Assembly (NCBI RefSeq): GCF_004010195.1
Contig: NC_057754.1
Span: forward strand, 12,102,760 to 12,150,994
Origin: Chiloscyllium plagiosum
Taxonomy: Eukaryota
Direction: 5' to 3'
Length of the DNA: 48,235 bases
The position numbers and the translations under genes are program-made. Shown here one piece after another: positions 2,681 through 46,884 of the stretch (position 1 is the stretch's first letter; each line of letters starts with the position of its first letter). The notes under the pieces were generated by a model. It saw only the letters and a program-made list of their open reading frames with translations. It was not told the DNA's origin and searched no databases.

Positions 2681-3219
2681 TTGGGAGCCTCCTGTGAAGC
2701 GCTTCTGTGGTGTTTCCTCCGGCATTTATAGTGGCCTGTCCCCGCCGCTTCTGGTTGTCAGTTTCAGCTGTCCGCTGTAGTGGCCGGTATATTGGGTCCA
2801 GGTCTATGTGTTTGTTGGTGGAGTTTGTGCATGAGTGCCATGCTTCTAGGAATTCCCTGGCTGTTCTTTGTTTCGCTTGCCCTATAATGGTAGTGTTGTC
2901 CCAGTCAAATTCATGTTGCTTGTCGTCTGCGTGTGTGGCTACTAGGGATAGCTGGTCGTGTCATTTCGTGGCTAGTTGATGTTCGTGGATGCGGATCGTT
3001 AGCTGTCTTCCTGTTTGTCCTACATAGTGTTTTGTGCAGTCCTTGCATGGGATTTTGTACACTACATTAGACAACGGAACGAGGACATGCCGCAACCCAA
3101 AGGACTAGCCACACTACCATACATCAAGAACATATCTGAAATGACAGCCAGACTACTGCGACCAACCAACAGCCACTCTCAGACAACAACCCACCAAGAC
3201 TAAGGACCCGTTACCCAGC

Positions 3220-3563
3220 ATGAGCAAAACTAACGTAGTGTACAAAATCCCATGCAAGGACTGCACAAAACACTACATAGGACAAACAGGAAGACAGCTA
3301 ACGATCCACATCCACGAACATCAACTAGCCACGAAACGACACAACCAGCTATCCTTAGTAGCCACACACGCAGACAACAAGCAACATGAATTCGACTGGG
3401 ACAACACTACCATTATAGGACAAGCCAAACAAAGAACAGCCAGGGAATTCCTAGAAGCATGGCACCCATCCACAAACTCCATCAACAAACACACCGACCT
3501 GGACCCAATATACCGGCCACCACAGCGGACAGCTGAAACTGACAACCGGAAACGGCAGGGACA
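3220..3563 (+). pseudogene. GIY-YIG endonuclease domain of Penelope ORF (fragment)
   Basis: NVVYKIPCKDCTKHYIGQTGRQLTIHIHEH...REFLEAWH...SIN contains the GIY-YIG motifs. The upstream part is frameshifted or deleted. Confidence 0.85.
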
Positions 3564-9298: not shown

Positions 9299-9601
9299 TA
9301 GATTAGATTACTTACAGTGTGGAAACAGGCCCTTCGGCCCAACAAATCCACACCGCCCCGCCAAAGCGCAACCCACCCATACCCCTACATTTACCCCTTA
9401 CCTAACACTACGGGCAACTTTAGCATAGCCAATTCACCTGACCTGCACATCTTTGGACTGTGGGAGGAAACCGGAGCACCCGGAGGAAACCCACGCAGAC
9501 ACGGGGAGAACGTGCAAACTCCACGCAGTCAGTCGCCTGAGGCGGGAATTGAACCCGGGTCTCTGGCGCTGTGAGGCAGCAGTGCTAACCACTGTGCCGC
9601 C
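9299..9601 (-). mobile_element. HE1-type tRNA-derived SINE
   Basis: Reverse strand has an A box (ggcacagtggtt), a B box (ggttcaattcc), a conserved core and a CR1-like tail ending in (taatc)n. Confidence 0.9.
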
Positions 9602-9966
9602 AAGGCTATAGTTGCTGGGATTGAAGAGATTTCATCGGACATTTGTGACAAATGTTTGCAATGTGGCTTCTCCACTCTGTTATTAACTGATGGCAAGAAG
9701 TTTTTCTGTGAGAAGACGTTTGACTGTGCTAACCAATGACTAGGTATTAGCCACACCTGATTACAGAAAAACTAGTAAGGTGGTTATTGATGCGAGTGGT
9801 GTGGGTGTCGGTGCTGTGCTCCTGCAGGAAAACAATCAAAATTTAGTAAAACCTATCGGGTATTTCTCCAGAAAGTTGAACTATCGTCAGCAAAAATATT
9901 CGACTTTAAACTTGGTGCTGGCAATGCAACACTTCATTTTTATATGACGAGTAACGCATCTTTTTT

Positions 9967-10264
9967 TTAGATGACTTACAGTGTGGAAACAGGCCCTTCG
10001 GCCCAACAAGTCCACACCGCCCCGCCGAAGCGCAACCCGCCCATACCCCTACATTTACCCCTTACCTAACACTATGGGCAATTTAGCATGGCCAATTAAC
10101 TTAACCTGCACATCTTTGGACTGTGGGAGGGAACCGGAGCAAACCCACGCAGACACGGGGAGAACGTACAAACTCCACACAGTCAGTCGCATGAGGTGGG
10201 AATTGAACCCGGTTCTCTGGTACTGTGAGGCTGCAGTGCTAACCACTGTGCCACCATGCCGACC
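9967..10264 (-). mobile_element. HE1-type SINE
   Basis: Same family as 9299-9601, inserted in the Gypsy RNase H region. Confidence 0.9.
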
Positions 10265-11140
10265 ACAAATATCTGAGACAACTATACCCATTGAATCACA
10301 ACACATTGAAGTTTGTGTGAAAACCTAAGGACAAAAGTGTCAGACTATTGTAATGGAGCTTGTTATTACAGACATTCAGCTTGAAAATTGTACATGTGGT
10401 AGGTTGAGAAGACAGGATTGCCAACACATTGTCGAGACTCAAATGAGAGACAGATGCATTCGGTGGCGGAAGACCCATAGAAAGAATCCGATTGTGATCC
10501 TGCATGTTTGCATGTTGAAAGTCAGTATATGTGCATTTTACGTAACTTACCAATACTTTTCGAAATTTTGAAAATCTATTGGATGTTCATGATTCATTTT
10601 TTTAAGTAGGGAGGTCGAACGAACCTGTGCCTTTTACAAGATTACTATGCCCTTGAATTTTTCTTTCTAATAGTGGATAATTAGCCAGGGTCTAACTAGG
10701 CTGGGTTTGAAAGGTTTATTGGGGCCATTTTCGTTTATACCTAGCAGGTAATCCCCCCAGCCTAAGACTTTGAAGTCTTAAAAATCGAGTATTATCAAGG
10801 GGACGTGGCCTGCTCTCGAGCTGCGCACTTCAGTTCAGGATATTAGTTGAGTCTGGGTCACCGTTCAAACTGGATATTCTTCCTCCTCCTGCCCTTCTGA
10901 CTTTGCAACCTGTAAGTTTTTTTTTGTGTCATTTTTACTTTTTGTACTAAGGGGTCTATTTATCAGGAGGTTGCAATTATTGTCGGAAAAAACATCATTA
11001 AATCGGGATTGCATGTTGGGTTTTACATAGCATAAGTTATCCAGTCTGCTCTATTCTGTTCATTGTGTTGAATTTTGTGATTCTTTAAACACGTTCTGTT
11101 TGTTTAAAACCTGGCAGCTGGACCAACTAATTTACTCTGG

Positions 11141-12123: not shown

Positions 12124-12424
12124 AGATTAGATTACTTACAGTGTGGAAACAGGTCCTTCCGCCCAACAAGTCCACACCGACCCGCCGAAGCGCAACCCAC
12201 CCATATCCTTACACTTACCCCTTCACCTAACACTACGGGCAATTTAGCATGGCCAATTCACCTGACCTGCACATCTTTGGACTGTGGGAGGAAACCGGAG
12301 CACCCGGAGGAAACACACGCAGACACGGGGAGAATGTGCAAACTCCACACAGTCAGTCGCCTGAGGCGGGAAATGAACCCGGGTCTCTGGCACTGTGAGG
12401 CAGCAGTGCTAACCACAGTGCCAT
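12124..12424 (-). mobile_element. HE1-type SINE
   Basis: Near-complete copy of the same family. Confidence 0.9.
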
Positions 12425-12551
12425 CAAGCTTGGTAGTTACAAATCATATCTGTTTTAATCACACTGGACTTTGTTTGCATTTCCGTTTAGGTGTTTTTAG
12501 AAGATAGCAAAATCAGTAAACTTTTAAAGAAATACATAATGTTATGCCTTC

Positions 12552-13149: not shown

Positions 13150-14722
13150 TCTTTAGTCTTTACGAAAGAAACGAACTTTGTAGTGAATGAAATCTTTGAA
13201 GAGCAGGTGTGCATGCTGAAATGGATAGAGATAGAGGAAGGTGATGTGCTGAAAATTTTGTCAAACATTAAGATTGACAAGTCGCCAGGCCCGGACCAGA
13301 TTTGTCCTCGGCTGCTTTGGGAAACGGCAAATGTAATTCCTCTCTTCAAGAAAGGAAATAGGTAAATCCCCGGCAATTACAGACCAGTAAGTCTCACGTC
13401 GGTCGTCTGCAAGGTGCTGGAAAGGATTCTGAGGGATAGAATTTATGACCATTTGGAAGAGCATGGCTTGATTAAATACAGTCAGCACTGCATTGTGAGG
13501 GGCAGGTCATGCCTCACAAATCTTATCGAGTTCTTTGAGGATGTGACTAGAAAGGTTGATGAGGGTCGAGCTGTAGATGTGGTGTATATGGACTTCAGCA
13601 AGGCATTTGATAAGATTCCCCATGGTAGGCTCATTCAGAAGGTCAGGAGGAATGGGATTCAGGGGAGCGTAGCTGTCTGGATACAGAATTGGCTGGCCAA
13701 CAGAAGACAGCGAGTGGTAGTAGAAGGAAAATATTCTGCCTGGAAGTCTGTGGTGAGTAGTGTTCCACAGGGCTCTGTCCTTGCGCTTCTATTGTTTGTA
13801 ATTTTTATTAATGACTTGGCTGAGGGGATTGAAGTATGGGTCAGCAAGTTTGCAGATGACACAAAGGTTGGAGGTGTCGTTGACAATATATAGGGCTGTT
13901 GTAGGCTGCAGCGGGACATTGGCAGGATGCAGAGATGAGCTGAGAGGTGGCAGATGGAGTTAAATCTGGATAAATGAGAAGCGATGCATTTGGGAAGTTC
14001 GAATTTGAAAGCTGAGTAGAGGATTCTTGGCAGTGTTGAGGAACAGAGGGATCTTGGTGTGCAGGTACATCAATCCCTTAAAATGGCCACCCAAGTGGAC
14101 AGGATTGTTAAGAAAGCATATGGTGTTTTGGCTTTCATTAACAGGGATAATGAATTTCAGAGTCGTGAGATCTTGTTGCAGCTCTATAAACCTTTGGTTA
14201 GACCGCACTTGGAATACTGCGTCCAGTTCTGGTCACCCTATTATAAGAAAGATGTGGATACTTTGGAGCGGGTTCAGAGGAGGTTTACCAGGATGCTGCC
14301 TGGACTGGAGGGCTTATCTTCTGAGGAGTGGTTGACTGAGCTCGGACTTTTTTCATTGGAGAAAAGGAGGAGAAGAGTGGACCTAATTGAGGTATACAAG
14401 ATAATGAGAGGCATAGATAGAGTCGATCGCCAGAGACTATTTCCCAGGGCAGAAATGACTAACACGAGGGGTCATAGTTTTAAGCTGGTTGGAGGAGAGT
14501 ATAGAGGGGATATCATAGGCGGGTTCTTTACACAGAGAGTTGTGAGAGCATGGAATGCGTTGCCAGCAGCATTTGTGGAGGCAGGGTCATTGGAGACATT
14601 TAAGAGACTCCTGGACATGCATATGGTCACAGAAATTTGAGGGTGCATACATGAGGATCAGTGGTCAGCACAACATCGTGGGCTGAAGGGCCTGTTCTGT
14701 GCTGTACTGTTCTATGTTCTAT
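13150..14722 (+). mobile_element. 5'-truncated CR1/HER1 LINE (RT and C-terminus, disrupted)
   Basis: KSPGPDQI, NYRPVSLTS, YMDFSKAFDKIPH, VPQGSVL, KFADDTK, RPHLEYCVQFWSP. Several stops and deletions. Ends in gttctatgttctat. Confidence 0.95.
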
Positions 14723-14892
14723 CAAGATCTGTATATGTTTAACAGACTGAATCAAATCCTTTGAGGTTATAGCTGCGTGAATCTATATTCATATTTGCTT
14801 ATGGAGAAAGGTCTTCGAGTACATTTGCTTCACCACGGCAACCTCCAACGCAATGTCACACAATGTGAAATGTGAAATCTCCAATTTTTCAG

Positions 14893-15800
14893 TTATTTAG
14901 ATCGTTGAATAAAATATAAACATGTCGAAAATGGATACATAAGCATATTCTTCAAATGTCCTCTGAATTTTGATTGAATAACAGTATAAACACAAGCGTT
15001 TGTGCAGCAGGCCGATGTTTGCAGAATGAAGCTTAGTTCAAGTACAACGTAAGGTATAAGTATGATGTTATAATCCAACTTTTCTATTCGTTTCCACAAA
15101 CAAAACAGCGTCATCAAAGCCCGTGACAGAACGAAAGTTCCTGAGATAACAAACAGGAAAATAATAGATTTCCTTCGACTCTCTCCCTCTAAATCTCCAT
15201 GACCCTCCCAAATTCTATGAGCATGGAGCCTTCTGCAGTTTTGTCTGCTCATTAAAACCTGCCTGATAATGAAAGTATTGAGCAGAACAATAAGCACGAA
15301 TGGAACTGCCAGTGATAGAACGTGATGCATGAACTCTATTGCTGCCCAAACGAGAGAAAGTTGCACTTCTTTTGCCATGATACAGAACCATGGTGTATTC
15401 CACTTTTTGTAGGAACCTGTTAGCATGAAATACCAGCTGACATTTTTTAAACAGCATAATACTCCAAGTGTTCCAAGAACGAAATCTGCTGTCTTTACAT
15501 TGCAATATTTACTTCTCCACTTCTTAGAAGAGATGGTCACAAATCGGTCAAAAGTAAATGCAACGGTGAACCAGACAGATGCATCTGTGACAGCATTTAT
15601 CAATGCAGCATGAATATTACACATAGGGATGTTCTCTAGGAAACGGAAAAGTTTATTATAGACAAGTACAATGTGTCTTAGTACCAGGTCCAAGATAATA
15701 ACGAGGAGGTCCGCCACTGCCATGGCCACCATGTATCGTGTGGTACATTTGGAAAGACCACATTTTCGCCGACTCAGTATCACAACCGTCAATATATTAA
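14893..15800 (-). CDS. GPR139-like class A orphan GPCR, coding exon 2 (end of TM1 to C-terminus); spliced product 369 aa
   Basis: Acceptor ttctctttctcctctaacAG at 15802-15801, then an uninterrupted frame to TAA. Motifs: TM2 AMAVADLL, TM3 SVWFTVAFTFDRF, Cys pair (IPMCN and PWFC), TM5 VPF...LLN, TM7 CTNACVY, helix 8 SKFR. It resembles the GPR139/GPR142-related receptors; orthology to GPR139 is not claimed. Confidence 0.92.
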
Positions 15801-17044
15801 CTGTTAGAGGAGAAAGAGAAATTGTACATCAGGTTGCATTAATTTTGATTCAATGTTTCTTGAGATCGCTACATTTGATCCTGTGCGATAAAATAATTTA
15901 GTCTGAGACTGTTTTTATGATGTAATATGTTGGTATGTAAAATAGAACCGAGGCATAGTGAAATTTGTGAAACGCATATAGCGTCATTTAGAATTATTCC
16001 CTCTTCCAGAGCATGGCTCAGTCACAGCCGAACTCTTAACATTCCGAATTGAATGCATCACAATACTTGGTGTTGGGGATCATGCAATTAATTTAAAATA
16101 TTATAATGGAGGCAACGATTTCGTGAGCATTACTTTATTTCAGGTGGAATATGTGGATCATATGGCAGACAGTGTAGTACCTCAGATAATAACGGACCAG
16201 AATAATTTACTGCTATCTTATAGTCATCATGACAAGAAGAACAACTGAAAAGAAAACGTCCTTTGGCTAATTGTATCTACACCGAGCAGAAACATCCCAC
16301 TTCGACATGTTGAACCCCTGAAGTTTACAATAACATTCGAGGATAATTTCATACATTTACCTGATACCATCAGCGTAGAATGTAGGGCAATATTTTGAGT
16401 ACCACACACGGATGTTGATTTCTTTCGAGGTGAAACAAAATTTTTGCATGGGCGTCAATTTGCATTTACTGGGACTGATACCAACTTTACTGACCAGATA
16501 CATCAACTGTGGCAAAATAACCTAATTGATTTGCATAATTAATCCTGGATTAAATTATGAGTTTCACGCCTGCATGCATCAACCAACTTCCAACAAGTCT
16601 GACCTGTTCGTGGAAACCAAGAACCGAGTCCTGTCCAGCCTGAATGCGAGAACTGATCCCTTAGTGACCGACAACAAGAAGGCTGACCGGACGATGGCAA
16701 GAACCCCTTGAACGAGAGTCACTCCTGGGACCCCATCAGATGTTACAGAAGGTGGATGGACAAACCCAGAAGTCTACCAGTCTCTCCGAGGCCAGAAGTC
16801 GTCTAAACCACAACCGAGGCACAACAAATGTTGGCAAACGAAACACTGTAACCCGACATCGAGGAAGCTTAAATGTACATGTTGCAGAATGCTTAAGGAC
16901 ACGAATAGTGCACATGGCACTTCAGGGGATCACGTGTATCTCTTGAAGCAGCAGCCCTCTCTTATTGGCATCCGGGGTCCAAAAAGAACAGACACCAGAC
17001 CAGGAAGCTTGAGAGACAAGTTGGATTTCCGGTAACACTTCAAC

Positions 17045-17135
17045 AGAGACTCACTGATGATGTTATATAGTATTGTACCTATACGTCAGAAAACAAACCT
17101 TCCAGTTCAGCGAACAAACTTACATCCAGAATCTA
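17045..17135 (+). mobile_element. Decayed Penelope (Poseidon-type) pLTR fragment
   Basis: cactgatgatgtta...acgtcagaaaacaaaccttccagttcagcgaacaaac resembles the pLTRs at 2600-2680 and 19900-20060. The hammerhead GAAA box is lost. Confidence 0.6.
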
Positions 17136-18264
17136 ATCAGAAATTCAAATCCTCCCGCCGAAACATACTCCTGGCAAATGTCCCAGTTGTTGAACACTAG
17201 ATGGATAACCTTAAATCTAAATGCATCCTCCACAGCGAATTGAGAAATTGCTATGAACTCTACTTTCCAGAATCACGGCTCACTCAAGCTGCACCCGACT
17301 AAGGCTTATAATGTGAGGATTTCTCAGTTCACTAAATGGACCGATCGGCGTCCTTTGAAAAGCAAGTGGCCATGATTTCTGCCTTCTAATGATCTTGGTG
17401 CTTAGATGAGACCATGCTGGCGAATTACTGCTCTATGGACTGAGAATATCCTATGTAAAATTCTGTCCCTACTATATGTTGCACGAGTTCAATTCCACTA
17501 TCCTGACGGCCGTTTACATACCACTCCATGTGAAATTGAAGAGTGCATTTGATGAAACATACAACGCTGCAAGCAATGTTGAGACAGAATACCTGGAGGT
17601 TTTCTAGTCTGTGACTTTAACCAGGCCAACTTGAATAATGTGCTGCCAATATGTCTCCTGTTCCACTAGAAGTCCAAACGTCCCTGACCATTGATGTACC
17701 TCTATCAAAAGTACGTACAGTTCCTTTCACCATTTGCGTTTTGAAATATCAGATCACTAGGCTGTTCTCCTCCGCACATCCACGCCCCCCACCCGCTCCA
17801 CTCCCTCGCTGACATGTAGAAATGTAAACATGAGGACCGAGTACAGAAAGTGGTGCGGTATTTTTCTGGAACAAAAGAAAAGCTTTTAAAGAACTGCCTA
17901 CAGTCCATGGACTGGGCCCTAATCAAGAACTCTGTGTCCAATTTGAACGAATTTCACTGACATCATTAGTGTATACAATATTATGTGCTGTAGAAGTCCA
18001 TCCAAATGCTCTCCATGTGGAAAACATGAATGAAACGGAAGGCACATTCCCTCCTAAATTTCAAATCTGATGCGAACAGATCGAGCAACTTCGATCTATA
18101 TAAGAAATCCAAGTACGACCTTCATACGGCCAATGGAGATGACAAGCAGCAACACCAAATGAAGCTTGAGACAAAGACCAACCACGTGAACAACGTCATT
18201 TATGGCACAACTTTTACACGCAACAGGCTACAAAGAGAAGTTGAACAGAATCACGAGGAACACG

Positions 18265-18545
18265 TGTGATGATGCTACTCCTTTAACAAGTTGATGTAAT
18301 TCTTCTTTTGCTTTTTCTTCAAAGGGGTTGTAAAGACAGAGGTTCCATTATATCTGGCTTTATCTATTTGAAGAAGCTTTTAACTATTTTTAAAACAATT
18401 GTAAATTGAGAGGGGTGTAGCCAATTCTCCGACTTCAGGGTTTGGTTTGTTTAATAAAGCTGTTTTGTTTGTAGTTGCTGGTCAAGTTTTAACTGGGAAA
18501 CCAGATAAGCTGCTGGGAACCCAAGGCACCGGCTTCATGCAAATC

Positions 18546-18577
<32 letters not shown>

Positions 18578-18915
18578 GTCTCTCTCTCTCTCTCTCTGAC
18601 ATCTTTACTGAAATAATGTGCCTGTGAATTTACCTTTTGCCAAAGGGTCTTTCTGGGATGTTGCAGGTAATTGGAAAAGAATCATTAAGCTGCGTTTTCG
18701 TGATGGTCGGATTTTCCAATAGATTTTTTAAAAATTCCCAATTCGTTTTTTTTTTGTTCAAGCGTCACTTAATTATGTTTTGTTTAAAACAGAGTGTGTT
18801 TTTTTTTTACCGCTGCAACACTCCTAGAATATACATCTGCTTAAAATAACTAGAACACTTAGTTTCTGGGCTAGTTTTTGACCTGTTTTGAGGCCGTCTG
18901 GTCTGGTCTGTCACA
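18265..18915 (+). mobile_element. Gypsy-type solo LTR inside the Rex/Babar element
   Basis: TGTGA...TCACA termini, with a 5' end similar to the LTR at 26922-26322. Contains (TC)n at 18545-18598. The TSD is imperfect (cacg/caga). Confidence 0.7.
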
Positions 18916-19861
18916 CAGAGCAGACCCGCTCAGTTCGCTGCATTCTACGCTTGTTATCACAGTAACCTTGGATGTATCACCATTGCAGCTGCTAGATTCG
19001 CCTTTTTACGAATGAGTCCATGGAAAATGTCTCACCTGAATGGAGTCTGTAGCCTTTCACTCAGACGCTGTGTGGACCAGTTGGTAGCACTATTCACAGA
19101 CCTCCTTAACTTCAACTTTGTATGATCTGATGTTCCCAACAGCTTCCAGAAAACGAATATCATCCTGTTGCCAAAGAAATATCATTCAGTTTGCCTCTAT
19201 ACTAACTCCCGGTGGTGCTGACTTCCATATTTATAAAGTACTTCGAAAAGTTAACCATGTTTCAGATCACTTTCAGCCTCCTAAATGTTCTTTGTTCTTT
19301 GCCGTTCACTTACCAGCACTACAGGTTCACAGCATACGCCATCTTCCTGGCCCTACATTAATCGCTGGAACATATGAATGACAAGGATACCAAATTCAGC
19401 TTCTTACTCATGAACTCAATGTCCGCCTTCAACACAATTATTCGAAACAAATGCATCCTTAAATTCTGTGACGCAGGTCTCTGCTGCCATTTTTGTAACT
19501 GGATCCTCGAATTTCTGGCCAGTCGTCCACAGTATGAATTGGCAGCAACATCTCTTCCACTGTAATCCTTACAACAGTGTCGTGCAACCCCGTGAACCTA
19601 GTTTCTAACTACATTCATTATACACTCATGACTATTAATTCCTAATAAGTCCATTTACAAGTTTGCTCGTAACACAACCACTGTAGGTCAGATGTCAAGC
19701 CACGCAGAAACAGATATTGAGTGTTTAGCGGCATGGTGTCAATGCAACAATCTCTCCACCAATAGCAGCAAAACGACGAAGTTTGCCATTGACTTCAGGA
19801 AGCGGACTGGAGGGCACACCAATGTCGGTATCAATGATGCTCTGGTAGAGATAGTCGAGAG

Positions 19862-20065
19862 CTAGCGAGTTTTGTGAAGATTTGTAGCTCCGGTTGAAGC
19901 TCTGGTTGCAGTTTTGCTCGCTGAGCTGAAGGTTTCGTTTTCAGACGTTTTGTCACCATAAGAGGTAACATGATCAGTGAGGTTAACTGGTGGTATTAAC
20001 TCGTATGGTAATAAAACATCTGAAAAAGAACTTTCCAGATCAGCGAGCAAACCTACATCCATAGT
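19862..20065. mobile_element. Old Penelope pLTR inverted-repeat insertion with degenerate hammerhead
   Basis: Arms ttgctcgctgagctgaagg...cagacgttttgtcaccata and tatggtaataaaacatctg...cagcgagcaa. Reverse strand reads tca-CTGATCA-tgttacc..ggtgac-AAAA-cgtc-tga, with two core mutations. Confidence 0.7.
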
Positions 20066-21214
20066 CAAGAACGACACGTCCCTGGAAGTGATGATCATTA
20101 AAAAGCTGTCCTGGTTCACCAATGTCAGTGTGACATTTGAGAATGCTGAACATGGTTCCTACTTCCTCAGGAGGCTCAGGAAATCCATTGACTCTAGCCT
20201 TTTTTTATAAAATACAGGCAGCATGGAAATCATCTTATCACAATGCTTCACAATGTGGATTGGAAACTGGTCTTGCCAAGACAACAAGTAACTTCAGAGA
20301 GTTATGACAACAGCCAAGTTCATCACGCAAAATGATCTTCACTTATACTTCTGGTTGCTTCTGGAAGAGAAGAAATAAATTGAAAGACCGCTCCAATCCC
20401 GGTTATATCCTCTTCTATTCACTGCTTTCGGGCAGATGACATAAAAGTAGAATACACGTATGGGCAGTTTTAAGAGGAACTTTTTCCTCGCTGAATTCAT
20501 ACTTCGAAATACATACAAACTACCCAACACATCCCTACCCTGCTTCCCATGCTAATTATGATCTCACTCTCTGTATGCCTCTCTGCCACTGGAATACTGT
20601 ATTCTGTACACTGTTTTGGTACCTCGATTCACCTCGTATAACATCTGCCTGTATGACTTGAAAAGCCAGACTTTCCCTTGTATTTTGGTATATGTGACAG
20701 CAATAAATCAATGAAACAATCAGTCAAATATGTCAGTCATCATGCACTAAACCATGTCCAAATGCACCTAAACCTGGTAAGTGCCTGCACTCTGTCTTAT
20801 AATTTACAAACAACTAATTTGCAACACAATTGTCTGGGCATGATTAACTCCAGCAGGAGACAATCTAACCATTGCTCCTTATGGTCCCTGGTGTTACCAT
20901 TGCTGGATTCCACGCTACCACCATCCTGCAGATTATTATAACTAACTGAATGACCTATATGCATTGCAATGGCTGCAGAAGCAGGTCAGGCACAAGGAAA
21001 CCTGCAGCTCGTAACTCACTGTCTGTCTTCCTATGACGATATCAACCTTAGTTAAGGCACAAATCAGCAGTATGATTAAACCATGTAATTCGTTTTGAAT
21101 AAAGGTCACTGAACTAGAAATGTGGTATTTTTTTCTGCCATTTTTTCCAGCATTATTTGTCTTTGCTTCAAAACTCCACCATCCATATTTGTTCATCCTA
21201 CATTATGAAATAAC

Positions 21215-22400
21215 TCCAACATATCCGAATGAGTGCAGCTCCAAAAGTATTCAAGAAATTTGACACTATCTCGATCAAAGCATCCTGTTTGATTGCAAGC
21301 AAGTACACGGAAATGCACTCCCGAGAACACCAATGTTCAATGGCAGCAATGTGTATAGTCTATATGATGAACTGCAGACATTCAGAGGGATAGGTCCACA
21401 GATCACTGAAAATGACAGCGCAGGTAGATAAGGAAATAGAAAAAGGCCTATGATTTGCTTGCCTTCATTTGATTGGGCATTGATGTGAAGGATAGACAAG
21501 TTATGCTGCAGCTTTATAGAACTTTAGTTCGGCCATACATCGAACATTGCGGTCACTACACCACCAGAAAGATACGGATGCCTTGAAGAGGGGAATAATA
21601 AAATACCAGGTTGCTACCTTTCATGCAGGATTTTATCTCTGAAGAAGGTCGGATAAATTGTGCTTTCTTTCTTTAGAACGCATGAGTTTCAGAGGTGACC
21701 TAGTAGAAGTTTATAGATTGTCAATGGCAGTGATAGAGTGCAAAGGACGAGGCTTTTTCCTAGGGTGGAGGGGTCAATTACTAGGGGTCACTGGTTCAAG
21801 GTGCAGTGGCGAAGGCAAGTGTGAAGGACATGTGTGAGGTACGTTTTTTACACAAATGGTGGTGAGTGCCTAGAACGCGATGCCAGAGGAGTGGGTAGAA
21901 GCAGACACAACAGCAGTATTCAATAAGCACCTGGTTGAAAGCATGAATTGCAATGGAATAAAGGGATATACAATCTGTAATTGAAGGCAATTTCAACATG
22001 GAAGTGCACAAGATGTCAGCGCAGCCTTGGAAGTCTAAAGGGGATATTCCTGTGCTGTATTCTTCTTTGTTGCCGGATCTGTGTTCTGTGTTCTTATTTT
22101 GGAAACACCTTGGCTCAAAACCTTCTAAACCTACAATTTGTAAGAGCAAGAGCAGGAAACAATTGAAAAACTAACATTATTATAATCCCCTCCAAGGTGA
22201 CACCATCCTGACTTGGAAATATATCAACAACACTTCAACATTTTAATTCAATGATCTATAAATTCTTCCGTGATTGTAGTGTGGATATACCTGTGACACA
22301 CAAACTGCACCGCATAAGAAGGCAAGTCATTAACACCTTCTCAAGGGGAACTGGACATGGACAAGAAATACTGACCAAGCCACCAAAATGCTGAGATTAT
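21215..22400 (+). mobile_element. CR1-like family B LINE 3' part, split by a CR1/HER1 insertion
   Basis: MSAAPKVFKKFDTI..KASCLI at 21230-21300 resumes at ~22100 with ccatcctgacttggaaatatatc and the ttctcaagggg tail. Confidence 0.65.
21378..22097 (+). mobile_element. Decayed CR1/HER1 LINE 3' fragment
   Basis: MLQLYRTLVRPYIEHC, RGDLVEVY and TRGHWFKV, followed by a 3'UTR ending gttctgtgttct. Confidence 0.8.
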
Positions 22401-22656
22401 GTGACTAAACTAGAATGAAATAATTGTTGTAACAAGGTTTCAACTTTAATTGGACTATTCTTCCATTCTCCTAAGTATATGGACACCCAAGAACATTTTG
22501 TGTGAGCATTTGTATAATTACATAGAAAAAGTTTAAATAAAATAAACAAAATTGACAGGATTGAATCGCGCTGTTCACTGCAGAACAACATCTGTGGCAG
22601 TGGCTGCCAGCACAACCAGGAACATCTCCTATTTTCTGACGTTAATAGTACAACAC

Positions 22657-22745
22657 TTCCTGATGAACGGCTTATGCCCGAAAAGTTGATTATTCTGCTC
22701 CTCGAATACTGCTTGAGCTGCTGTGCTTTTTTACCAACAGCATAT
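22657..22745 (+). mobile_element. Decayed Penelope pLTR fragment with hammerhead remnant
   Basis: ttc-CTGATGA-acggc-ttat-gccc-GAAA-agtt followed by sequence homologous to 1800-1870. Confidence 0.7.
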
Positions 22746-23604
22746 TCCTAGTATTTCATACAGTACCTGTTGCACTGACTTGAAGTCGTGGTCAGCACGA
22801 ACTATAGAGAACTTGAAAAAGACTTTAAGCAGCACTATTTAGGGGCATAGGGAAATATGGGCCCGGGCACGACATGTTAGAGGACTGAATATACTGGGAG
22901 AGCTAGGAGATGGATTGAAAGTAGAAGATTTCACATATTATCAGACTAACAACGCTACGACTCGTTGGGCACAATAAAGTTGGGAGAGATAGATGTGTCA
23001 TGTAGCAGATTGTGATCAACACTTTCAGATGAGCTGAAATATTGTAATTGCGTGTGTACATTATTATACATTAATTATTCACAATACTTTTTTTTCTTCT
23101 CTTTTAACTCTTTTCACCGAATAGGTTGATGAATTTTTTGTAAACCTTGTGAACCAAATTTCCAATGCGTTGTGATCAGGACAGTGTAGAGATTGTACGT
23201 TAAAACTGAATAAAACTCTATGTCTCCTTTCATATATTATTGCTGATACTTTACATACATTCCTTTTTTTAAAAAAGCATGGTAATGTCATAAGCTAGGG
23301 AGAGATGAGTAGCAGGTTTGTGGAGCCTACTGGGGACTTGGAAAGCAAATAAAAACATGATAGAATAGCTGAAGTACTGTGAGATGTAAATTGGTTTATT
23401 TCTGAATGTTACAGTGGAGAGAAACAACATGCATTGAATGGTCAGATTTTAAATTGAGAACTCGAATGGGGAACGCTGTGGTTAAAAACACTTATTATTT
23501 TATATTGCTTTGCACAAACGTTGGAATAAATTAAATGTGAGGATGAATAATACTACTAGGTCATTAATGGGCGGGGTTGTTGAGGGAATGGATATGGGTT
23601 CAGT

Positions 23605-23716
23605 GTTCCTGTGGTGTGCACTTAGAGTCCCACACTCGGAGCCAGAACATCTGTGTTCAGTTTCCACCGCCTCCAGAGATGGGGAATGACATATGTACGC
23701 AGGCTGGCTAGAAATA
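23605..23716 (+). mobile_element. Possible ancient tRNA-derived SINE remnant
   Basis: gtggtgtgc...gagccagaacatctgtgttcagtttcc resembles a degenerate A/B-box head. Confidence 0.35.
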
Positions 23717-23905
23717 ACTGGATAAGCACGTCAAATAGATTGTGGGTTTATCTTGAATACTGATTCAAGAGGAGATTTCCGTGTGTGAATGGCAAAGACG
23801 TTTTTAAAAAGGATGGAACACATTGGATTTGGGCTGCACAGATTTCAAATATTTTGCACGTACCACAGACTTAAATAATAAAAGAAAATGGACAAATTGA
23901 CTTAC

Positions 23906-24107
23906 CAGGGACACCAATAAGTGCCAGCATTGGGTAATATCCTGCTTGCATAATCCGAAGACTGTAATAGATTCGCCATTTTGTTGCTAGTTTTTCATAA
24001 CGTGTGGAAAACGTGTAAAGTGCATGGTACAAGTTCCTGTCAATGGCTGTCATATTCCGACTTAATGTTGTCACGTTGAGATCCATTGTGATCATCTTCC
24101 AATTCAT
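23906..24107 (-). CDS. GPR139-like class A orphan GPCR, coding exon 1 (N-terminus and most of TM1)
   Basis: ATG at 24107 gives MNWKMITMDLNVTT...YYPMLALIGVP (67 aa) plus 1 nt, then a canonical donor CTG|GTAAGT at 23905. It joins exon 2 in frame to give GVP-V-NILTVVILSR, restoring the TM1 Asn motif. N-glycosylation sequons NVT and NMT are present. Confidence 0.88.
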
Positions 24108-24887
24108 TGTTCTTGATGTATGATCGAATTGTGTTGCATTCGAAAGTCACTTCTGTTTATTGTGAAAATATTTAAATCAATTGCAATAAAATTCGTTCTG
24201 TGGATGTTGTATTCATTTTTCTCTCTCAGGTACTAACCTCCCGTCTTCCTCTCTCTCGAGTCGCAGTTTTCCCGAAGTGCCAATTCATTTGGAGAAATCG
24301 GTTTTTAATAGAAGTTGCAAAGCCTCCGGGGTGCCAATTAACATTCTTGGAAGTTGACGATAAAGCCATAAGTGAGACAATAAGCATTCCTTTAAGCTGA
24401 CGATCGTTAGTATTCGAACAAACAGATTCAGTTAACCGTTCGCACTCCAATGCTTACTGTAACACGATGCCTTGGGCATTTTAGAAATGATACAACTGAT
24501 TTGAATAACAGCCACGAAATTTATGTAGAAAGGAATGACATTAAAACTGAAGTATTGGGCATAGAATTCGAGATTTCTAAAGCATTGGCTGGTGACAGAT
24601 TTGGAAATGTTCATCAATGACAAGTGCAGCCAAAAGAAGGTTAAGGGATAAAATATACCACTGAATCATAGGGACATGTGTAAAAGTACTTCATCGGGTA
24701 AAATCATTTAATTGTTTGGAATAGCTTTGAATAATTTAAGGTATTACATGGAATCTGTCAACAGGAATATATGAATGTGAGATTGTGATTCAGTGAAAAG
24801 GTTTGAGGAAGGTGCAAAGAATGAAGGTAGATATAATGACTGCCACTTCTCTCTTGATGCTCTTGAATGGCATAGGTCAGTGCTACT

Positions 24888-25189
24888 CATGGTGGCTCAG
24901 TGGTTAGCACTGCTGCCTCACAGCACCAGGGTCCCAGGTTCGATTCCAGCATCGGGTGTGGAGTTTGCACATTCTCCCCGTGTCTGCGTGGGTTTCCTCT
25001 GGGTACTCCAGTTTCCTCCCACAGTCCAAAGCTGTGCAGGTTAGGTGAATTGGCCATGCTAAATTGCCCATAGAGTTAGGTGCATTAGTCAGGGGGAAAT
25101 GGGTCTGGGTGGGTTACTCTTCGGAGGGTCGGTGTGGAGTTGTTGGGCCGAAGGGCCTCTTTCCATACTGTCGGGAATCTAATCTAATC
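24888..25189 (+). mobile_element. HE1-type SINE
   Basis: ggtggctcagtggttagc A box, ggttcgattcc B box and a (ctaat)n tail. Confidence 0.9.
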
Positions 25190-25199
25190 AACATTGAAT

Positions 25200-31439: not shown

Positions 31440-34400
31440 AAAGATCAAAGACAATTACAGCATAGGAACAGGCCATTCAACCCTCCAAGCCTGTGCCAAT
31501 CCAGATCCTCTATTGAATTCTGCCACCTATTTTCTAAAGAGCTGTATCCCTTTGCTCCCTGCCCATTTATGTATCTGCTTGATAAATCTTAAATGACGCC
31601 ATCGTTCTCGTCTCTACCACTTCCACTGGCAATGTGTTCCAGCCACCCCCCCCCCCCCACCCCCTCCCCCGTGTAAAGAACTTTCCGTGCACATCTCCCG
31701 AAATATTTCTCCTTATGACCCCTAGTAATTGTATTCCGCACTATGGGACAAAGCCTCTTGCTATCCATCCTGTTTATACCTCTCATGACTTTTTAGACCT
31801 CAGTCAGGTCCTCCATTAACCTCTTTCCAATATCTTTCCTTCTCATGAAAATATTCACAATATATTAAGCCTCTCTTCATAACGCTACACTCCATATCAA
31901 GCAACATCCTGGTGGACCTTCTCTGCACCCTCTACACAGCCTTTTGAAAATGTGGTGACCAGAGCTATACACAGTATTTCAAATGGGCCAAACCAAAGTT
32001 CTGTGCAATTGTAATATGACCTGCCAACTCTTGTACTCAATGCTTAGTCCATGAAGGAAAGCATGCCATATGCCTTCTTGATCACTCTACTGACCTGCGT
32101 TGCCACCTTGAGGGATTAATGGACCTGAACACCCAGATCTCTCTGTGTGTCAATTTTCCCCCGGGCTTTTACAATTACTGTATAGTTTACTCTTAAATTG
32201 GATCTTTCAAAATGCATCACCCTGCATTTGCCAAGATTGAACTCCAACTGCCATTTCTCTGCCCATCTCTCCAATCTATCTATATTCTGCTGTACTCTCT
32301 GACAGTCCCCTTCACTATCTACTACACAATCTTGGTGTCATCTGCAAACTTGCTAATCAGGCAACTGAAACCTTCCTCCAAATCATTCATTTATACCTCA
32401 AACAACAGTGGTCCCAGCACAGGCCTCTGCGGAACTCTACTGGTCACTGGTCTCCATTTTGAGGAACACCCTTCCACTACTCCTTTCTGTATCCTGTTGC
32501 CCAGCTAATTTTCTACCAATCTAGCTCGGAAACCCAGGCCCCCATGAGGCTGTGCCTTCTTCATCAGCCTATTATGGGGAACCTTATCAAATGCCTCGCT
32601 AAAGCCCGTGTATATGATATCTACAGACCTTCCCCCATCAATCAACTTTGTCACATTCGCAAAGAATTATATTAGGTTTGGAAGACATGACCTTGCCCGC
32701 ACAAAACTATGTTGCCCATTATTGATAATCCAATTTTCTTCTAAATGGGAATAGATCCAATCCCTCAGTATCCTCTCCAGCAGCTTCCCTACCACTGATG
32801 TCAGGCTAACCAGTCTGTATTTACCTGAGTATCCCATCTACCCTTCTTAAACAAAGGGAGAACATTAGGCATTCTCCAGTCCTCCAGGACCTCACCTGTA
32901 TTCAAAGATAAAGCTGCAGCTATTTCTTCTCTCGATTCCCTCAGCAATCTGGGGTGGATCCCACCCGGACCTGTGGACTTGTCTATCTTAATGCCTTTTA
33001 TAAAACACAAGACCTCCTCCCTCCTTCTGTCGATTTATCCGAGAGTACTCAAAGATATATCGTTTACATCAATATCCGTCATATCCCTCTCCTCGGTGAA
33101 TACTGATGCAAAGTACTCGTTAAGAATCTGACCCATTTTCTCTGACTCCACGCATAACTTTCCTCCTTTGTCTGTAACTGGGTCAACCCTATCTCTAGTT
33201 TCCCTCTTGCTCCTTATATATGAAAAAAAACGGCATTGGGAATTTTCTTAACCCTGTTTGCTAAAGATATCTCAAGACCCCTGTTAGCCCTTTTTAATTC
33301 CTTGTTTCAAATTGGACCTACTTTTCTGATATTCTTCAAAAGCTTTGTCTGTCTTCCATCAGTGGGTGGCACGGTGGCACAGTGGTTAGCACTGCTGCCT
33401 CACAGCGCTAGAGACCCGGGTTCAATTCCCGACTCAGGCGACTGACTGTGTGGAGTTTGCACATTCTCCCCGTGTCTGCGTGGGTTTCCTCCGGGTGCTC
33501 CGGTTTCCTCCCACAGTCCAAAGATGTGCAGGTCAGGTGAATTGACCATGCTAAATTGCCCATAGTGTTAGGTAAGGGGTAAATGTATGGGTGGGTTGCG
33601 CTTTGGCGGGTCGGTGTGGATTGTTGGGCCGAAGGGCCTGTTTCCACATTGTAATGTAATCTAATCACCTACACCTTTTGTACACATTCTTTTTCTTCTT
33701 TGCCAGTCTCGCAATTTCACCTGTTATCCATGGTTCCCTAACCTTGCCATTTTGCTCCCTCATTTTCACAGGAACATACATCTTCTTAACTCTGATCGAC
33801 CTCTCTTTACAAGACTCCCAAATATGGAACATGGATTTACCTTCAAACAGCTGCTCCCAATCTACACTCCCCAGCTCCTGCCGAATTTTGGTACAGTTGG
33901 CCTTTCCAGAATTTAGCCCTCTTCCTCTAGGAACACTCTCATCTTTGTCCAGAGTATTCCACAACTTCTGGAATTGTGATCACTATTGCCAAATTAATCC
34001 CCGACTGAAGCATCAACCACCCGGCAGGGCTCATTTCCCAAAACCAGCTCCAGTATAGCCCCTTTCCCGAGTTGGACTATTTACATACTGCTCTATAAAA
34101 TACTCCTGGATACACCTTACAAATTCTGCTGAAACTAGACCTCTAACAAGAAGTGAATCCCAGTCAATGTTGGGAAAATGAAAATCTCCTCTTGACACCA
34201 CCTTGTTGCTCCCACATCTTTCGATGATTTGTTTACATATTTGCACTTTTCCCTCACTTTAGCTGTTGGAAAGCCTGTAGTAAAGCTCCAAAATTATTAC
34301 TGCACCCTTTCTATTTCTGAGCTCTGCCCATATCGCCTCGGTACTCGAGTCTTCCATAGTGCCCTCCTTCAACACAGCTGTGATATTTTCTTTGACCATA

Positions 34401-38900: not shown

Positions 38901-39144
38901 AGGAATACTCTCTGCCTCCTTTTCTGAGTATGCATAAACATCAGGGCTAAACGCTTCTGCCTGACCCCCTGCCTGTTCAGGTACTTCTTGCACCATTACG
39001 TCAAACATGGTCTCTGCCAACTAAACGTCAGCTTGGATGTTGCTTCTTACGGGAGAAAGTGAGGTCTGCAGATGCTGGAGATCAAAGTTGAAACTTTATT
39101 GCTGGAACAGCACAGCAGGTCAGGCAGCATCCAGGGAACAGGAG

Positions 39145-39180
39145 ATTCGACGTTTCGGGCACAGGCCCTTCCTCAGGAAT
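39145..39180 (-). ncRNA. Minimal type I hammerhead ribozyme motif
   Basis: Reverse strand reads attc-CTGAGGA-a-gggc-ctgt-gccc-GAAA-cg-TC-gaat, with 4-bp helices I and II and a GUC site. Confidence 0.75.
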
Positions 39181-39395
39181 GAGCAGAGAGTGTTCAGCAG
39201 GAGAAGATAAAAGGTAGGGAGGAGGGACTTGGAGGAGGGGAGTTGGAAATGTCTTCTTCTTGACCTCTCCGCCTCCATCCTACTCCCACCTATCACCCTC
39301 ACCTTGACCTCTTTCCACCTATCACATTTCCAACGCCCCTCCTCCAAGTCCCTCCTCCCTACCTTTTATCTTCTCCTGCTGAACACTCTCTGCTC

Positions 39396-39431
39396 ATTCC
39401 TGAAGAAGGGCCTGTGCCCGAAACGTCGAAT
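39396..39431 (+). ncRNA. Minimal type I hammerhead ribozyme motif
   Basis: attc-CTGAAGA-a-gggc-ctgt-gccc-GAAA-cg-TC-gaat. Predicted cleavage after 39427. Confidence 0.75.
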
Positions 39432-40544
39432 CTCCTGTTCCCTGGATGCTGCCTGACCTGCTGTGCTGTTCCAGCAATAAAGTTTCAACTTTGATATCCA
39501 AATGAATCCAACAAGAACTGGACCAAGCATATGTGGTACTCATAATCTTCTTCATCCTAAGTATACGCATGATTTTACTACAACTGCTAAGTATTTCATC
39601 AGTAATATTTTCAGCAACATAACACAAAACATCGCAGATAAGAAAAACTGCAGCATATTAACATGCCAAATTTCCCCTAAAGTAAATGCATTAAAATTCC
39701 ATCAAATTTGACAATATTGTTATGTATTTGGCTTTAAGGGGTTAACACGTAGGGGGTTCCATACAACAGCCAAGCAGGGTGAGATCAATAGTTGTGATGT
39801 TGAGAAGATATGCTCTTCTTCATTAGGGTAAATAAAACCACAGAAAGTAGACAAAATCAAACACAAAATATTGCTGAGGAAAGGAGTGAACAAAGACAGA
39901 AATGGGAACTATTTAAATGTAAATCTATGATTCGCTCCAGTAATAATATCTAACAATATTCAATATCTAGGATCATACCAAAAGAGTACTTTGAAGTATT
40001 AAAGGGATTTTCTGCTATCTAGTGATCTCTGAGGCATGAAGTTTCCCTTTCTTGATATGTGCAAGATCAAGACAAACACTAGGCATACAGTAACAGTGAT
40101 ATCACCGCAGGGAGTTGGCAGCCAATTACACTGAAGTATTCTCAAACAGCAAATCAGAAAGTAAAATGCAGTAAAATCTTCTACTCAATTAAAATTTCCA
40201 CAGAGTAAATACAAATCATCAGTGATACACATGGGATTAAAGTAGCTGAAATATCATAACTTTTTTTTAAATTTGAAAAAAACATTATTGCCATAATAAT
40301 GGCAAAAAAGCATCCCAGTGATATAACATTAGATTTCTATGAGTAACTATTGAGTTATTAAAATTAAATTGCATTTATATAGTAACTGTTATGGCTGCAG
40401 TCTTCTTCTTGACCTCTCCGCCTCCATCCTACTCCGACCTATCACCCTCACCTTGACCTCTTTCCACCTATCACATTTCCAACGCCCCTCCTCCAAGTCC
40501 CTCCTCCCTACCTTTTATCTTCTCCTGCTGAACACTCTCTGCTC

Positions 40545-40580
40545 ATTCCTGAGGAAGGGCCTGTGCCCGAAACGTCGAAT
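40545..40580 (+). ncRNA. Minimal type I hammerhead ribozyme motif
   Basis: attc-CTGAGGA-a-gggc-ctgt-gccc-GAAA-cg-TC-gaat. Predicted cleavage after 40576. Confidence 0.75.
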
Positions 40581-41739
40581 CTCCTGTTCCCTGGATGCTG
40601 CCTGACCTGCTGTGCTGTTCCAGCAATAAAGTTTCAACTGTTGCTTCTTACACCATTACTTCAAACATGGTCTCCGCCAACTAAACGCCAGTTCAGATTT
40701 TGCTTTGTGCTGTGATTTATGATCGTGATGTAGTGTTTCTACACAGTATGGGAAAATTGCATTGTATTTTTCTTTTAACTCCTCTGTTCCCTGTTCTTCC
40801 TTGGACTTTTCCACAACAAAGAGTGTCACTCCGACTTGGATCTTGCTAAATCGTTCCTAATTGTATTCCTAGAACTGACACTCTGTTAATCACTCCCACT
40901 GTTACTTGCCCAGTCTTGAGTTGGCAATCAAACTTGATGTTACATAGGGGAATGGTAACTTTCTGTCACTCTGTCCCCAAAATTACCACTATCGGATAAC
41001 AAGTAAGAAAGAGTACGATTAGAGACTGGTTTGATTCTGTACCTCTCAAAATTATAACTTCTTTGGCTCCCCCGCCCTGTTCTTCCTGCGTAAACTTTAG
41101 CCACAGAGGCAAATCATTTATGCAGATCAGACACTAATTCCATACCCAGCACCTGCCTCGGCTATGCACTCTTCTGCAGCTCGTCCAATTTTTTTTCTTC
41201 AGGTTTCCTTTACTACTTTCGCTAATACCACTGGCTTAGCATCTTTTACCTCACCTTTTCCCAAAGTACCTTTCTTTAACAAACAGCACTGTGATTTATC
41301 TGTACCACTTTACCACATTGAAAACATCTGAAGCCTTTCACCTCCTCTTCTATTCTCTTGGGCTTTTGTTAGAACCTAGGGTAAAAATTAACAATTTTCT
41401 TTACTCTTTGTTTCATGGTGTAGGATCTCCCCTTCTCCAAATTTCTATCCCTCACAAGAAGAAATTCTTGCCGGAAGCTATGCGTTGCCTAATGCACTAA
41501 TTTTTACTCATCTGCCATGTCCGCTGATCTTCTTGAGCTTTCTGTTCATTCCACATGAATTCTTATCATCACTGGACGTGAGTATTTAAATTCTCCAGCA
41601 GAATAAGAGCTCTTAGATCCCCATATGTCTTATCTATTTGTAAGGCCCTCACCTATCTGTCAAAGTCAATTCTTTCAAACACAACTTAAGTCTGACCTGG
41701 TTCTTTCTTTGTGTTTTGAATCGCTGTCTACTCGCTTCT

Positions 41740-42060
41740 GCTGGTATGCCAAATAGCATAAACAGCAAGTGATAGATAGAGCTAGGCGATCCCACAGCCA
41801 ACAGATCTAAGCTCTGCAATCTTGCCACATCTCGTCATGAATGGGGGTGATTGATTAAAAAGAAGGCTGCACAAATATCCCTATCCTCAATGATGGAAGA
41901 GCCCAGCACACCAATGCAAAATATAAGGTTAAAGCTTTCTCAGCAAGCTTCAGCCAGATGTGCCGATTGGGTGATCCATCTCAGCCTTCTCCAGTGATCC
42001 CCAGCATCATAGATACCAATATTCAGGCTTTTTAATTGACTCCGCGTGACATCAAGAAAA
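41740..42060 (+). mobile_element. CR1-like LINE ORF2 internal fragment (EN-RT linker)
   Basis: NIPILNDGRAQHTNAKYKVKAFSASFSQMCRLGDPS resembles the CR1-type K.KAE.F...F linker. Confidence 0.6.
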
Positions 42061-42297: not shown

Positions 42298-42540
42298 TTA
42301 GATTACTTACAGTGTGGAAACGGACCCATTCCCCTACATTTACCCCTTTGTGTAACACTACGGGCAATTTAGCATGGCCAATTCACCTGAATTGCACATC
42401 TTCGAACCGTGGGAGAAAACCCACGCAGACACGGGGAGAATGTGCAAACGCCACACAGTCAGTCGCCTGAGGCGGGAATTGAACCCGGGTTTCTGGCGCT
42501 GGGAGACAGCAGGACTAACCACTGTACCACCGTGCCGCCC
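42298..42540 (-). mobile_element. HE1-type SINE with internal deletions
   Basis: Same head, core and tail as the other copies. Confidence 0.88.
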
Positions 42541-42549
42541 ACTCATAAG

Positions 42550-46772: not shown

Positions 46773-46884
46773 TTAGATTAGATTACTTACAGTGTAGAAA
46801 CAGGCCCTTCGGCCCAACAAGTCCACACCACCCCGCCAAAGCGCAACCCACCCATACCCCTACATTTACCCCTTACCTAACACT
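46773..46884 (-). mobile_element. 3' part of HE1-type SINE, cut by the CR1 insertion
   Basis: Matches 9299-9410 and stops abruptly at cctaacact. Confidence 0.88.

Follow-up and report, generated by a model that had tools for sequence, protein, structure and literature searches.

A genuine but fast-evolving class A receptor gene of Chiloscyllium plagiosum from an expanded cartilaginous-fish family related to GPR139

Does a repeat-rich stretch of the Chiloscyllium plagiosum genome (contig NC_057754.1, positions 12,102,760 to 12,150,994; 48,235 nucleotides (nt), hereafter the window) contain a genuine receptor gene and, if so, to which family does this gene belong and what might it sense? A preliminary description of the window had proposed that two open reading frames (ORFs) splice at a G/TT junction into a stop-free seven-transmembrane (7TM) protein of 369 amino acids (aa). 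Our analysis confirmed this structure on the minus strand, with a GT-AG intron. Coding exon 1 (23906..24107, minus strand; 202 nt of coding sequence (CDS) with the ATG at 24107) encodes the extracellular N-terminus and the first half of transmembrane helix 1 (TM1), that is aa 1-67 and one base of Val68. Coding exon 2 (14893..15800, minus strand; 908 nt including the TAA stop) encodes the rest of TM1 to TM7 and helix 8, as judged from a 7tm_1 match and a structural model. The two exons are separated by a phase-1 intron of 8105 nt (15801..23905, minus strand), located just before N1.50, whose 5' end reads GTAAGT and whose 3' end consists of a pyrimidine tract and AG. Joining the exons splits the Val68 codon, gives the reading G-V-P-V-N and leaves zero internal stops in the 369-aa product.

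Comparison with related proteins supports the same junction. It is the best of the four in-frame GT/AG combinations found within about 50 nt of either end, scoring 407.0 bits against a hidden Markov model (HMM) of the family described below, while the other three score 397.9, 392.3 and 377.4 bits. Used by itself as a query, exon 1 finds 81 of the 120 nearest homologues at E<=1e-3, the best at 3e-15. The gene models of several relatives change to unrelated first exons at the position of the intron, and the comparison suggests that this position is family-wide. The N-termini of several database models of the family (P0086, P0099, P0120, P0084, P0030 and P0105) match fragments of long interspersed nuclear elements (LINEs) present in the window, and their first exons are therefore probably mis-annotated. 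Contigs from two conspecific samples cover much of exon 2: none of the seven indels listed for them falls in the CDS, and the exon 2 differences among those listed, three in number, are all synonymous. One such contig, spanning 14987-15630, carries a single difference, and another, spanning 14909-15480, carries none. We found no second receptor copy elsewhere in the 48-kb window. Short contigs over TM2 reach a depth of 165-209, compared to about 10-30 for unique contigs; this depth is not a copy number but may point to paralogues in the animal's own genome.

The product is a rhodopsin-class (class A) G-protein-coupled receptor (GPCR), and its gene is genuine. Exon 2 matches a single Pfam family, 7tm_1 (E 3.6e-16, 59.9 bits with a curated cutoff of 30.5). 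AlphaFold2 predicts for exon 2 a helical bundle followed by helix 8 (predicted local distance difference test 84.4, predicted TM-score 0.83), and all 50 Foldseek matches listed for this model are class A GPCRs, with TM-scores of about 0.56-0.71; GPR139 takes no special place among them, at ranks 24 and 30. The D3.49-R3.50-F3.51 motif is intact (15541..15549, minus strand), and so are N1.50, D2.50, C3.25 with the cysteine of extracellular loop (ECL) 2, P5.50 (P234 by alignment to GPR139), N5.58, N7.49, Y7.53 and the phenylalanine of helix 8.

To which receptors is this protein related? When the exon 2 protein was used as a query, 1221 out of 2053 candidates matched at E<=1e-5, counted as 90%-identity clusters, with organism names taken from the best 120. 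Of these best 120, 119 carry the name of a cartilaginous fish, and almost all are annotated as 'probable GPR139'. Heterodontus accounts for 58 and Heptranchias for 46; the remainder belong to catsharks, carpet sharks, sawshark, white shark and smooth-hound. The C. plagiosum copy is 52-58% identical to 119 of the best 120. The paralogue search suggested in the preliminary description thus revealed a large family rather than a single-copy gene, and the many divergent shark paralogues carrying the 'probable GPR139' name, which had been mentioned there, do exist. In a library clustered at 50% identity 379 proteins match, with 92 clusters reaching E<=1e-30; out of 21 such representatives checked, 19 come from sharks, skates, rays or Callorhinchus and two have no organism given. 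Because Callorhinchus, a chimaera, is among these strong representatives, several subfamilies probably predate the chimaera split. A FastTree tree of 222 rows (all proteins obtained that cover most of the family HMM) places 49 Heterodontus and 24 Heptranchias sequences in single-species clades, a pattern of lineage-specific duplication that agrees with the rapid family evolution proposed earlier, and 14 Heptranchias matches come from contig records of one and the same length, a hint that they may be clustered. In its size and its lineage-specific expansion the family resembles a chemosensory repertoire.

The C. plagiosum copy is a member of this expanded family, as had been supposed. In a tree of 56 rows it lies inside a 17-row subfamily clade with full support (100 in the Shimodaira-Hasegawa-like approximate likelihood ratio test, SH-aLRT). 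It carries the family motifs, namely basic-Cys-Gly-Leu-Ser in intracellular loop (ICL) 1, the invariant Asp and basic cluster before TM6, and a glycosylated N-terminal repeat. The latter is a degenerate repeat region (aa 1-26; 24030..24107, minus strand) with N-glycosylation sequons at N11 and N18. Its 7/14-residue units vary in number among subfamily relatives: the motif is present in 1-8 copies in 47 of the 88 scorable proteins of the top 120, and in none of 49 proteins from other subfamilies.

The database name raises the possibility that the gene is simply the true GPR139 or GPR142 orthologue. Relatives are annotated as 'probable G-protein coupled receptor 139', and among the solved structures of the Protein Data Bank (PDB) human GPR139 comes closest to the family profile (E 3.7e-34; the next match is at 1.2e-25). 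However, the match between exon 2 itself and human GPR139 reaches just E 0.0034 across 181 residues, a level that does not exceed its match to the neuromedin-U receptor, and the protein is nested among more than 100 paralogues and keeps one of the four agonist residues considered below. The weak match to human GPR139 and the nesting refute GPR139 orthology, in line with the preliminary description, and we give orthology to either receptor practically no chance.

The lineage is not restricted to sharks, as amphibians and sturgeon have a conserved gene that is sister to the family. This nearest non-chondrichthyan relative came up as 20 clusters in amphibians, no two of them under the same species name, and as a single sequence in sturgeon; there is apparently one gene per species, with 77% mean identity. 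In the 56-row tree (a quick IQ-TREE run on 56 of the 222 rows, with SH-aLRT as its only support measure) the 44 family rows group with a support of 90 and the family joins the amphibian/sturgeon clade with 99. Orphan receptors of coelacanth, teleosts and amphioxus branch further out, coelacanth P0238, silverside P0247 and anchovy P0259 being the next relatives in the trees, and the outgroup rows P0264, P0266, P0268, P0270, P0278 and P0279 are called invertebrate by resemblance. The phylogeny that had been called for thus placed the family clade and its sister gene, but it did so with human GPR139 and GPR142 absent from both trees, and the root of the family is provisional for this reason. In amphibians the sister gene (P0261, P0271-P0274 and P0281-P0300, amphibians and sturgeon together) has Asn at position 2.50 and Ser at position 1.50, both unusual for class A receptors. 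Among published descriptions, fish orphans of a GPR139/142-related kind have been named GPR210A/B, and the accessible part of that paper never mentions sharks and does not describe the expansion (PMC6504862); an 'Orphan 139-like' group is tabled as unclear in the portion available of another (PMC5207463). We conclude that the family almost certainly arose from one GPR139-related orphan receptor by birth-and-death expansion in chondrichthyans, with the C. plagiosum gene as one paralogue, and that the ancestral orphan is still conserved as an apparently single-copy gene in amphibians and sturgeon.

Do the receptors of this family share a ligand? We compared 29 standard pocket positions, fixed beforehand from general class A knowledge, with 31 control positions of the same depth. 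Pocket entropy was lower than control entropy in 22 amphibian orthologues (0.08 vs 0.43 bits, p=0.001) and in 126 subfamily members (0.59 vs 0.83 bits, p=0.023), and higher in 49 members of other subfamilies (2.36 vs 1.86 bits, p=0.030). From this entropy pattern the single amphibian/sturgeon gene looks tied to one ligand, while each chondrichthyan subfamily appears to retain a pocket of its own and pockets seem to differ between subfamilies, as in ligand-diversified repertoires; one of the two tests of this difference was significant. Within the subfamily, variation sits in the extracellular loops (ECL1 1.61, ECL2 1.93 and ECL3 1.94 bits, compared to 0.26 for TM3).

Mutagenesis has shown that F109, H187, W241 and N271 of GPR139 are needed for agonists including Trp and Phe, according to the part of the report available (PMC5430874). 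The statement that GPR139 and GPR142 sense aromatic amino acids thereby stands for GPR139, to which this support is confined. Mapped through the family-profile alignment to GPR139, three of these residues are kept in the subfamily, F109 as Y/F in 121/126 members, H187 in 121/126 and W241 in 126/126, and three (F, W and N) in the amphibian orthologues. The C. plagiosum copy has N136, H226, R294 and F325 at these positions, so that only the equivalent of H187 is retained.

This raises the question of whether the C. plagiosum copy is itself still functional. The preliminary description had overlooked how strongly it departs from its own family. Its mean identity to the 120 nearest relatives is 54%, whereas these relatives are 74% identical to each other. 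Among 156 conserved sites 41 are altered, compared to a median of 4.5 and a maximum of 23 in the 120 relatives, and among 64 sites conserved family-wide 12 are altered (subfamily median 1, maximum 6). Its terminal branch measures 0.67 against a median of 0.11, and relative-rate tests with both outgroups showed it to evolve significantly faster than five of seven relatives, the two others being P0125 and P0127. The altered sites include position 6.48, which is Arg (CGG; 15121..15123, minus strand) where all 126 subfamily members and all 22 amphibian orthologues have Trp, position 5.47, which is Leu (15310..15312, minus strand) where all 126 subfamily members have Pro, both ICL2 cysteines and the aromatic residue at 3.33; the signalling core is intact. 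The W6.48/P6.50 activation motif, common in class A receptors though not universal, is thus absent from the copy, and P6.50 is missing from most of the subfamily too. An apparent enrichment of the copy's changes in the pocket (15/29 vs 52/160) disappeared with the same-depth control (15/29 vs 13/31, p=0.6), and we therefore claim no positive selection on this pocket.

Such divergence would be expected if the copy were a pseudogene in the making, as yet free of stops, and if the expansion were largely a neutral or dosage-driven turnover of near-redundant genes, and the excess of altered sites, the long branch, the charged residue at 6.48, the lack of another paralogue in the window and the lack of a 26-bp repeat array upstream of the gene all speak for this explanation. 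We consider it unlikely. In neutral simulations to the same divergence (n=2000, run without indels) the frame stayed stop-free in just 0.55% (P=0.0055), and the observed substitutions are milder than neutral ones (BLOSUM 0.10 vs -0.56+-0.27, P=0.0095). Neither the splice sites nor the core motifs are damaged, and the conspecific contigs list no CDS indel. Moreover, the subfamily members P0125 and P0127 evolve about equally fast, the 120 comparators are best matches and hence biased toward slowly evolving sequences, and Ser occupies 6.48 in coelacanth and teleost relatives. Pure neutrality thus appears unlikely, and past function followed by recent relaxation is possible. Judging from these substitution patterns, the copy seems to be a fast-evolving member under purifying selection that is weakened yet present. 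With the 3.33 aromatic residue and W6.48 lost, its responses probably differ by now from those of its subfamily. We slightly favour the view that it is still a working receptor with a shifted ligand or activation; that it is decaying has a substantial chance, somewhat short of an even one. In either case it is an atypical and poor representative of its family.

What, then, might the family sense? By analogy with other diversified repertoires, and tentatively, we favour the reading that it serves varied external amino-acid or peptide cues. Each subfamily would carry its own extracellular pocket, and all these pockets would go back to a site that bound aromatic amino acids or peptides as in GPR139; a bound ligand would activate a G protein by way of the DRF / D2.50 / N7.49-Y7.53 core, which is intact; and the family would serve as a repertoire for external cues in sensory or barrier epithelia. 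The chemosensory role put forward in the preliminary description is plausible on this analogy. A stronger version would hold that chondrichthyans possess a large chemoreceptor family, derived from the GPR139 / MIP-type peptide-receptor clade and exceeding the OR, TAAR, V1R and V2R families together, which reads waterborne amino acids or peptides, that bony vertebrates kept the ancestral gene as a single copy or lost it, and that the C. plagiosum copy is shifting its ligand or activation; this version we hold to be doubtful. The small shark olfactory receptor (OR) repertoire mentioned in the preliminary description is backed by counts of 5-8 genes each for the OR, ORA and TAAR families of the catshark in the available part of PMC6368271, and a relative paucity of GPCRs in cartilaginous fishes is noted in the accessible text of the whale shark paper (PMC8455134).

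Several observations weigh against a repertoire for external cues. Tree-based site rates in the other subfamilies pointed in the same direction as pocket entropy but were not significant (pocket 1.33 vs 0.92, p=0.18), and pocket diversity implies a diversity of ligands, which need not be external. Dozens of subfamily copies with nearly the same pocket fit a fine odour code poorly. The changes in the C. plagiosum copy look more like relaxation than adaptation, and the trees on which the origin of the family is read lack the human receptors. In about 2% of the single-cell run X5, whose tissue is unspecified, 483 reads fell on 13600-24500. They were concentrated on repeats, while depth was zero in the bins 15056-16147 and 23792-24155 and not one read spanned the intron, a result that is not evidence of silence. 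A second run (X6, about 6% sampled) placed no reads on the locus and carries no weight either way. Finally, catshark olfaction is reported to depend on V2Rs, and the top-50 genes specific to the catshark brain and olfactory library include no GPCR, in the part of PMC11979771 available.

The same sequence features would suit immune or defence sensors that detect microbial or damage-derived peptides in leukocytes or barrier cells, comparable to the formyl-peptide receptors and MRGPRs of mammals. Variation in the extracellular loops and in the number of glycosylated N-terminal repeat units suits large or peptide ligands, and species-specific expansions are typical of immune families too. A single-cell atlas of the shark immune system (PMC11372145) does not contain the name GPR139 in any of its four supplementary files, a weak counter-argument as labels may differ. 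We regard this alternative as rather improbable, and a third as still less probable: that the receptors bind endogenous neuropeptides or hormones in neural, endocrine or reproductive tissue and have multiplied in step with a peptide family that has so far escaped recognition. The dozens of copies that a genome holds in species-specific clades, and the 92 clusters at 50% identity, exceed the sizes of endocrine receptor families, which are far smaller. Nevertheless, the best solved matches of the family profile after GPR139 are peptide receptors such as NTSR1 and the PrRP receptor, the nearly invariant pocket of the amphibian sister gene is what one endogenous ligand predicts, and GPR139/142 and the protostome receptors for MIP/sex-peptide, FMRFamide, proctolin and myosuppressin go back to a common origin, according to the part of PMC8514136 available. 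We retain the repertoire for external cues as the favoured, if tentative, reading.

The expansion seems to have escaped description. We found no account of an expanded GPR139-like family in the literature searched, which lay mostly outside subscription journals. Three papers, on the catshark sensory genome (PMC11979771), the shark nose (PMC10116579) and the zebra shark (10.1101/2022.10.17.512540), do not mention GPR139 in their main text, and in PMC12294341 it appears solely in a reference. Beyond the immune atlas, its name was not found in 12 of the 24 supplementary files of PMC8455134, in three files of PMC7677710 or in the readable supplement of PMC10115646. A GPR139-clade repertoire in cartilaginous fishes thus appears undescribed, although lineage-specific GPCR repertoires as such are already known.

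Around the coding exons, a TATA-like element (24303..24310, minus strand) lies 203 nt upstream of the ATG and is a candidate promoter. Between 24153 and 24310 on the minus strand there are three upstream ATGs, opening frames of 20, 14 and 11 codons, and a putative 85-nt intron in the 5' untranslated region (24153..24237, minus strand; GT...AG) would remove the 14-codon one; a non-coding first exon may lie upstream of the ATG. No other host gene was found in the window, whose remainder appears to be repeats. The claim that nearly all surrounding transposon ORFs are ruined is mostly right. It holds for a CR1-type LINE fragment (13366-14640, plus strand; RVT_1 E 3.2e-24), whose reverse transcriptase is split across frames and which ends about 250 nt past the receptor stop on the opposite strand. 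The sole AATAAA/ATTAAA within 1.4 kb past this stop sits inside the same fragment. An exception is a frame open for 312 codons (47193-48131, plus strand) with a GDSL/SGNH esterase domain (Lipase_GDSL_2 E 4.9e-12), which we take to resemble ORF1 of CR1-type LINEs. A 167-codon ORF (46273-46776, plus strand) with a SCAN domain (E 4.2e-08), resembling 41315-41740, is presumably a Gypsy-type gag remnant. Direct and inverted repeats of 167-240 bp with 98-99% identity (39076-40639; 39251-39490 vs 40400-40639 and 39076-39252 vs 39500-39324) may be a young repeat or an assembly duplication. An interspersed repeat of about 300 bp, resembling short interspersed nuclear elements, is present in seven copies that are 77-97% alike (9300-9604, 9967-10266, 12124-12428, 24888-25190, 33370-33666, 42324-42546 and 46774-46887). 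Lastly, an inverted 334-bp pair of 94% identity (2737-3070 and 3230-3563) adjoins an assembly gap and has no Pfam match; its ORF text resembles, in our assumption, the GIY-YIG end of Penelope elements.

How does the family compare with known systems? With at least 58 and at least 46 annotated members of one subfamily in two shark species, all under one misleading RefSeq name, it conflicts with the picture of GPCR paucity. A sensory role would be relevant to the question of how sharks can smell with such a small set of classical receptors; an immune role would make the family an overlooked part of shark defence. The C. plagiosum copy matters less than the family and would be a poor choice for ligand screens. 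The OR, TAAR, V1R/ORA and V2R repertoires resemble it in copy number, species-specific clades, short coding region and pocket variation between subfamilies, but exon 2 matches 7tm_1 and no other Pfam family. Nematode srw receptors, which derive from peptide receptors, offer a further analogy, for which we found no supporting paper in the literature searched; PF10324 (Srw) is annotated on 16-42% of members in some Atlas look-alike clusters, which is a lead only. GPR139 (PDB 7vug and 9m42) and GPR142 are, like the family, class A 7TM receptors with N at 5.58 and no Pro at 7.50, but GPR139 is a conserved single-copy gene, in contrast to the dozens of family copies per genome. It is brain-expressed, as stated in the available part of PMC5430874. 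GPR210A/B and the 'Orphan 139-like' group are non-mammalian orphans of the same wider clade that appear to fall outside the shark and amphibian clade. The amphibian/sturgeon orphan (P0261 of Pleurodeles, P0284 of Xenopus tropicalis and P0300 of Acipenser) is 21% identical to the C. plagiosum protein, has a near-invariant pocket and shares with the chondrichthyan family both the Asp that is invariant in front of TM6 and the cysteines of ICL2. It is an orphan worth deorphanising, and its Xenopus tropicalis gene provides a tractable route to the ancestral ligand.

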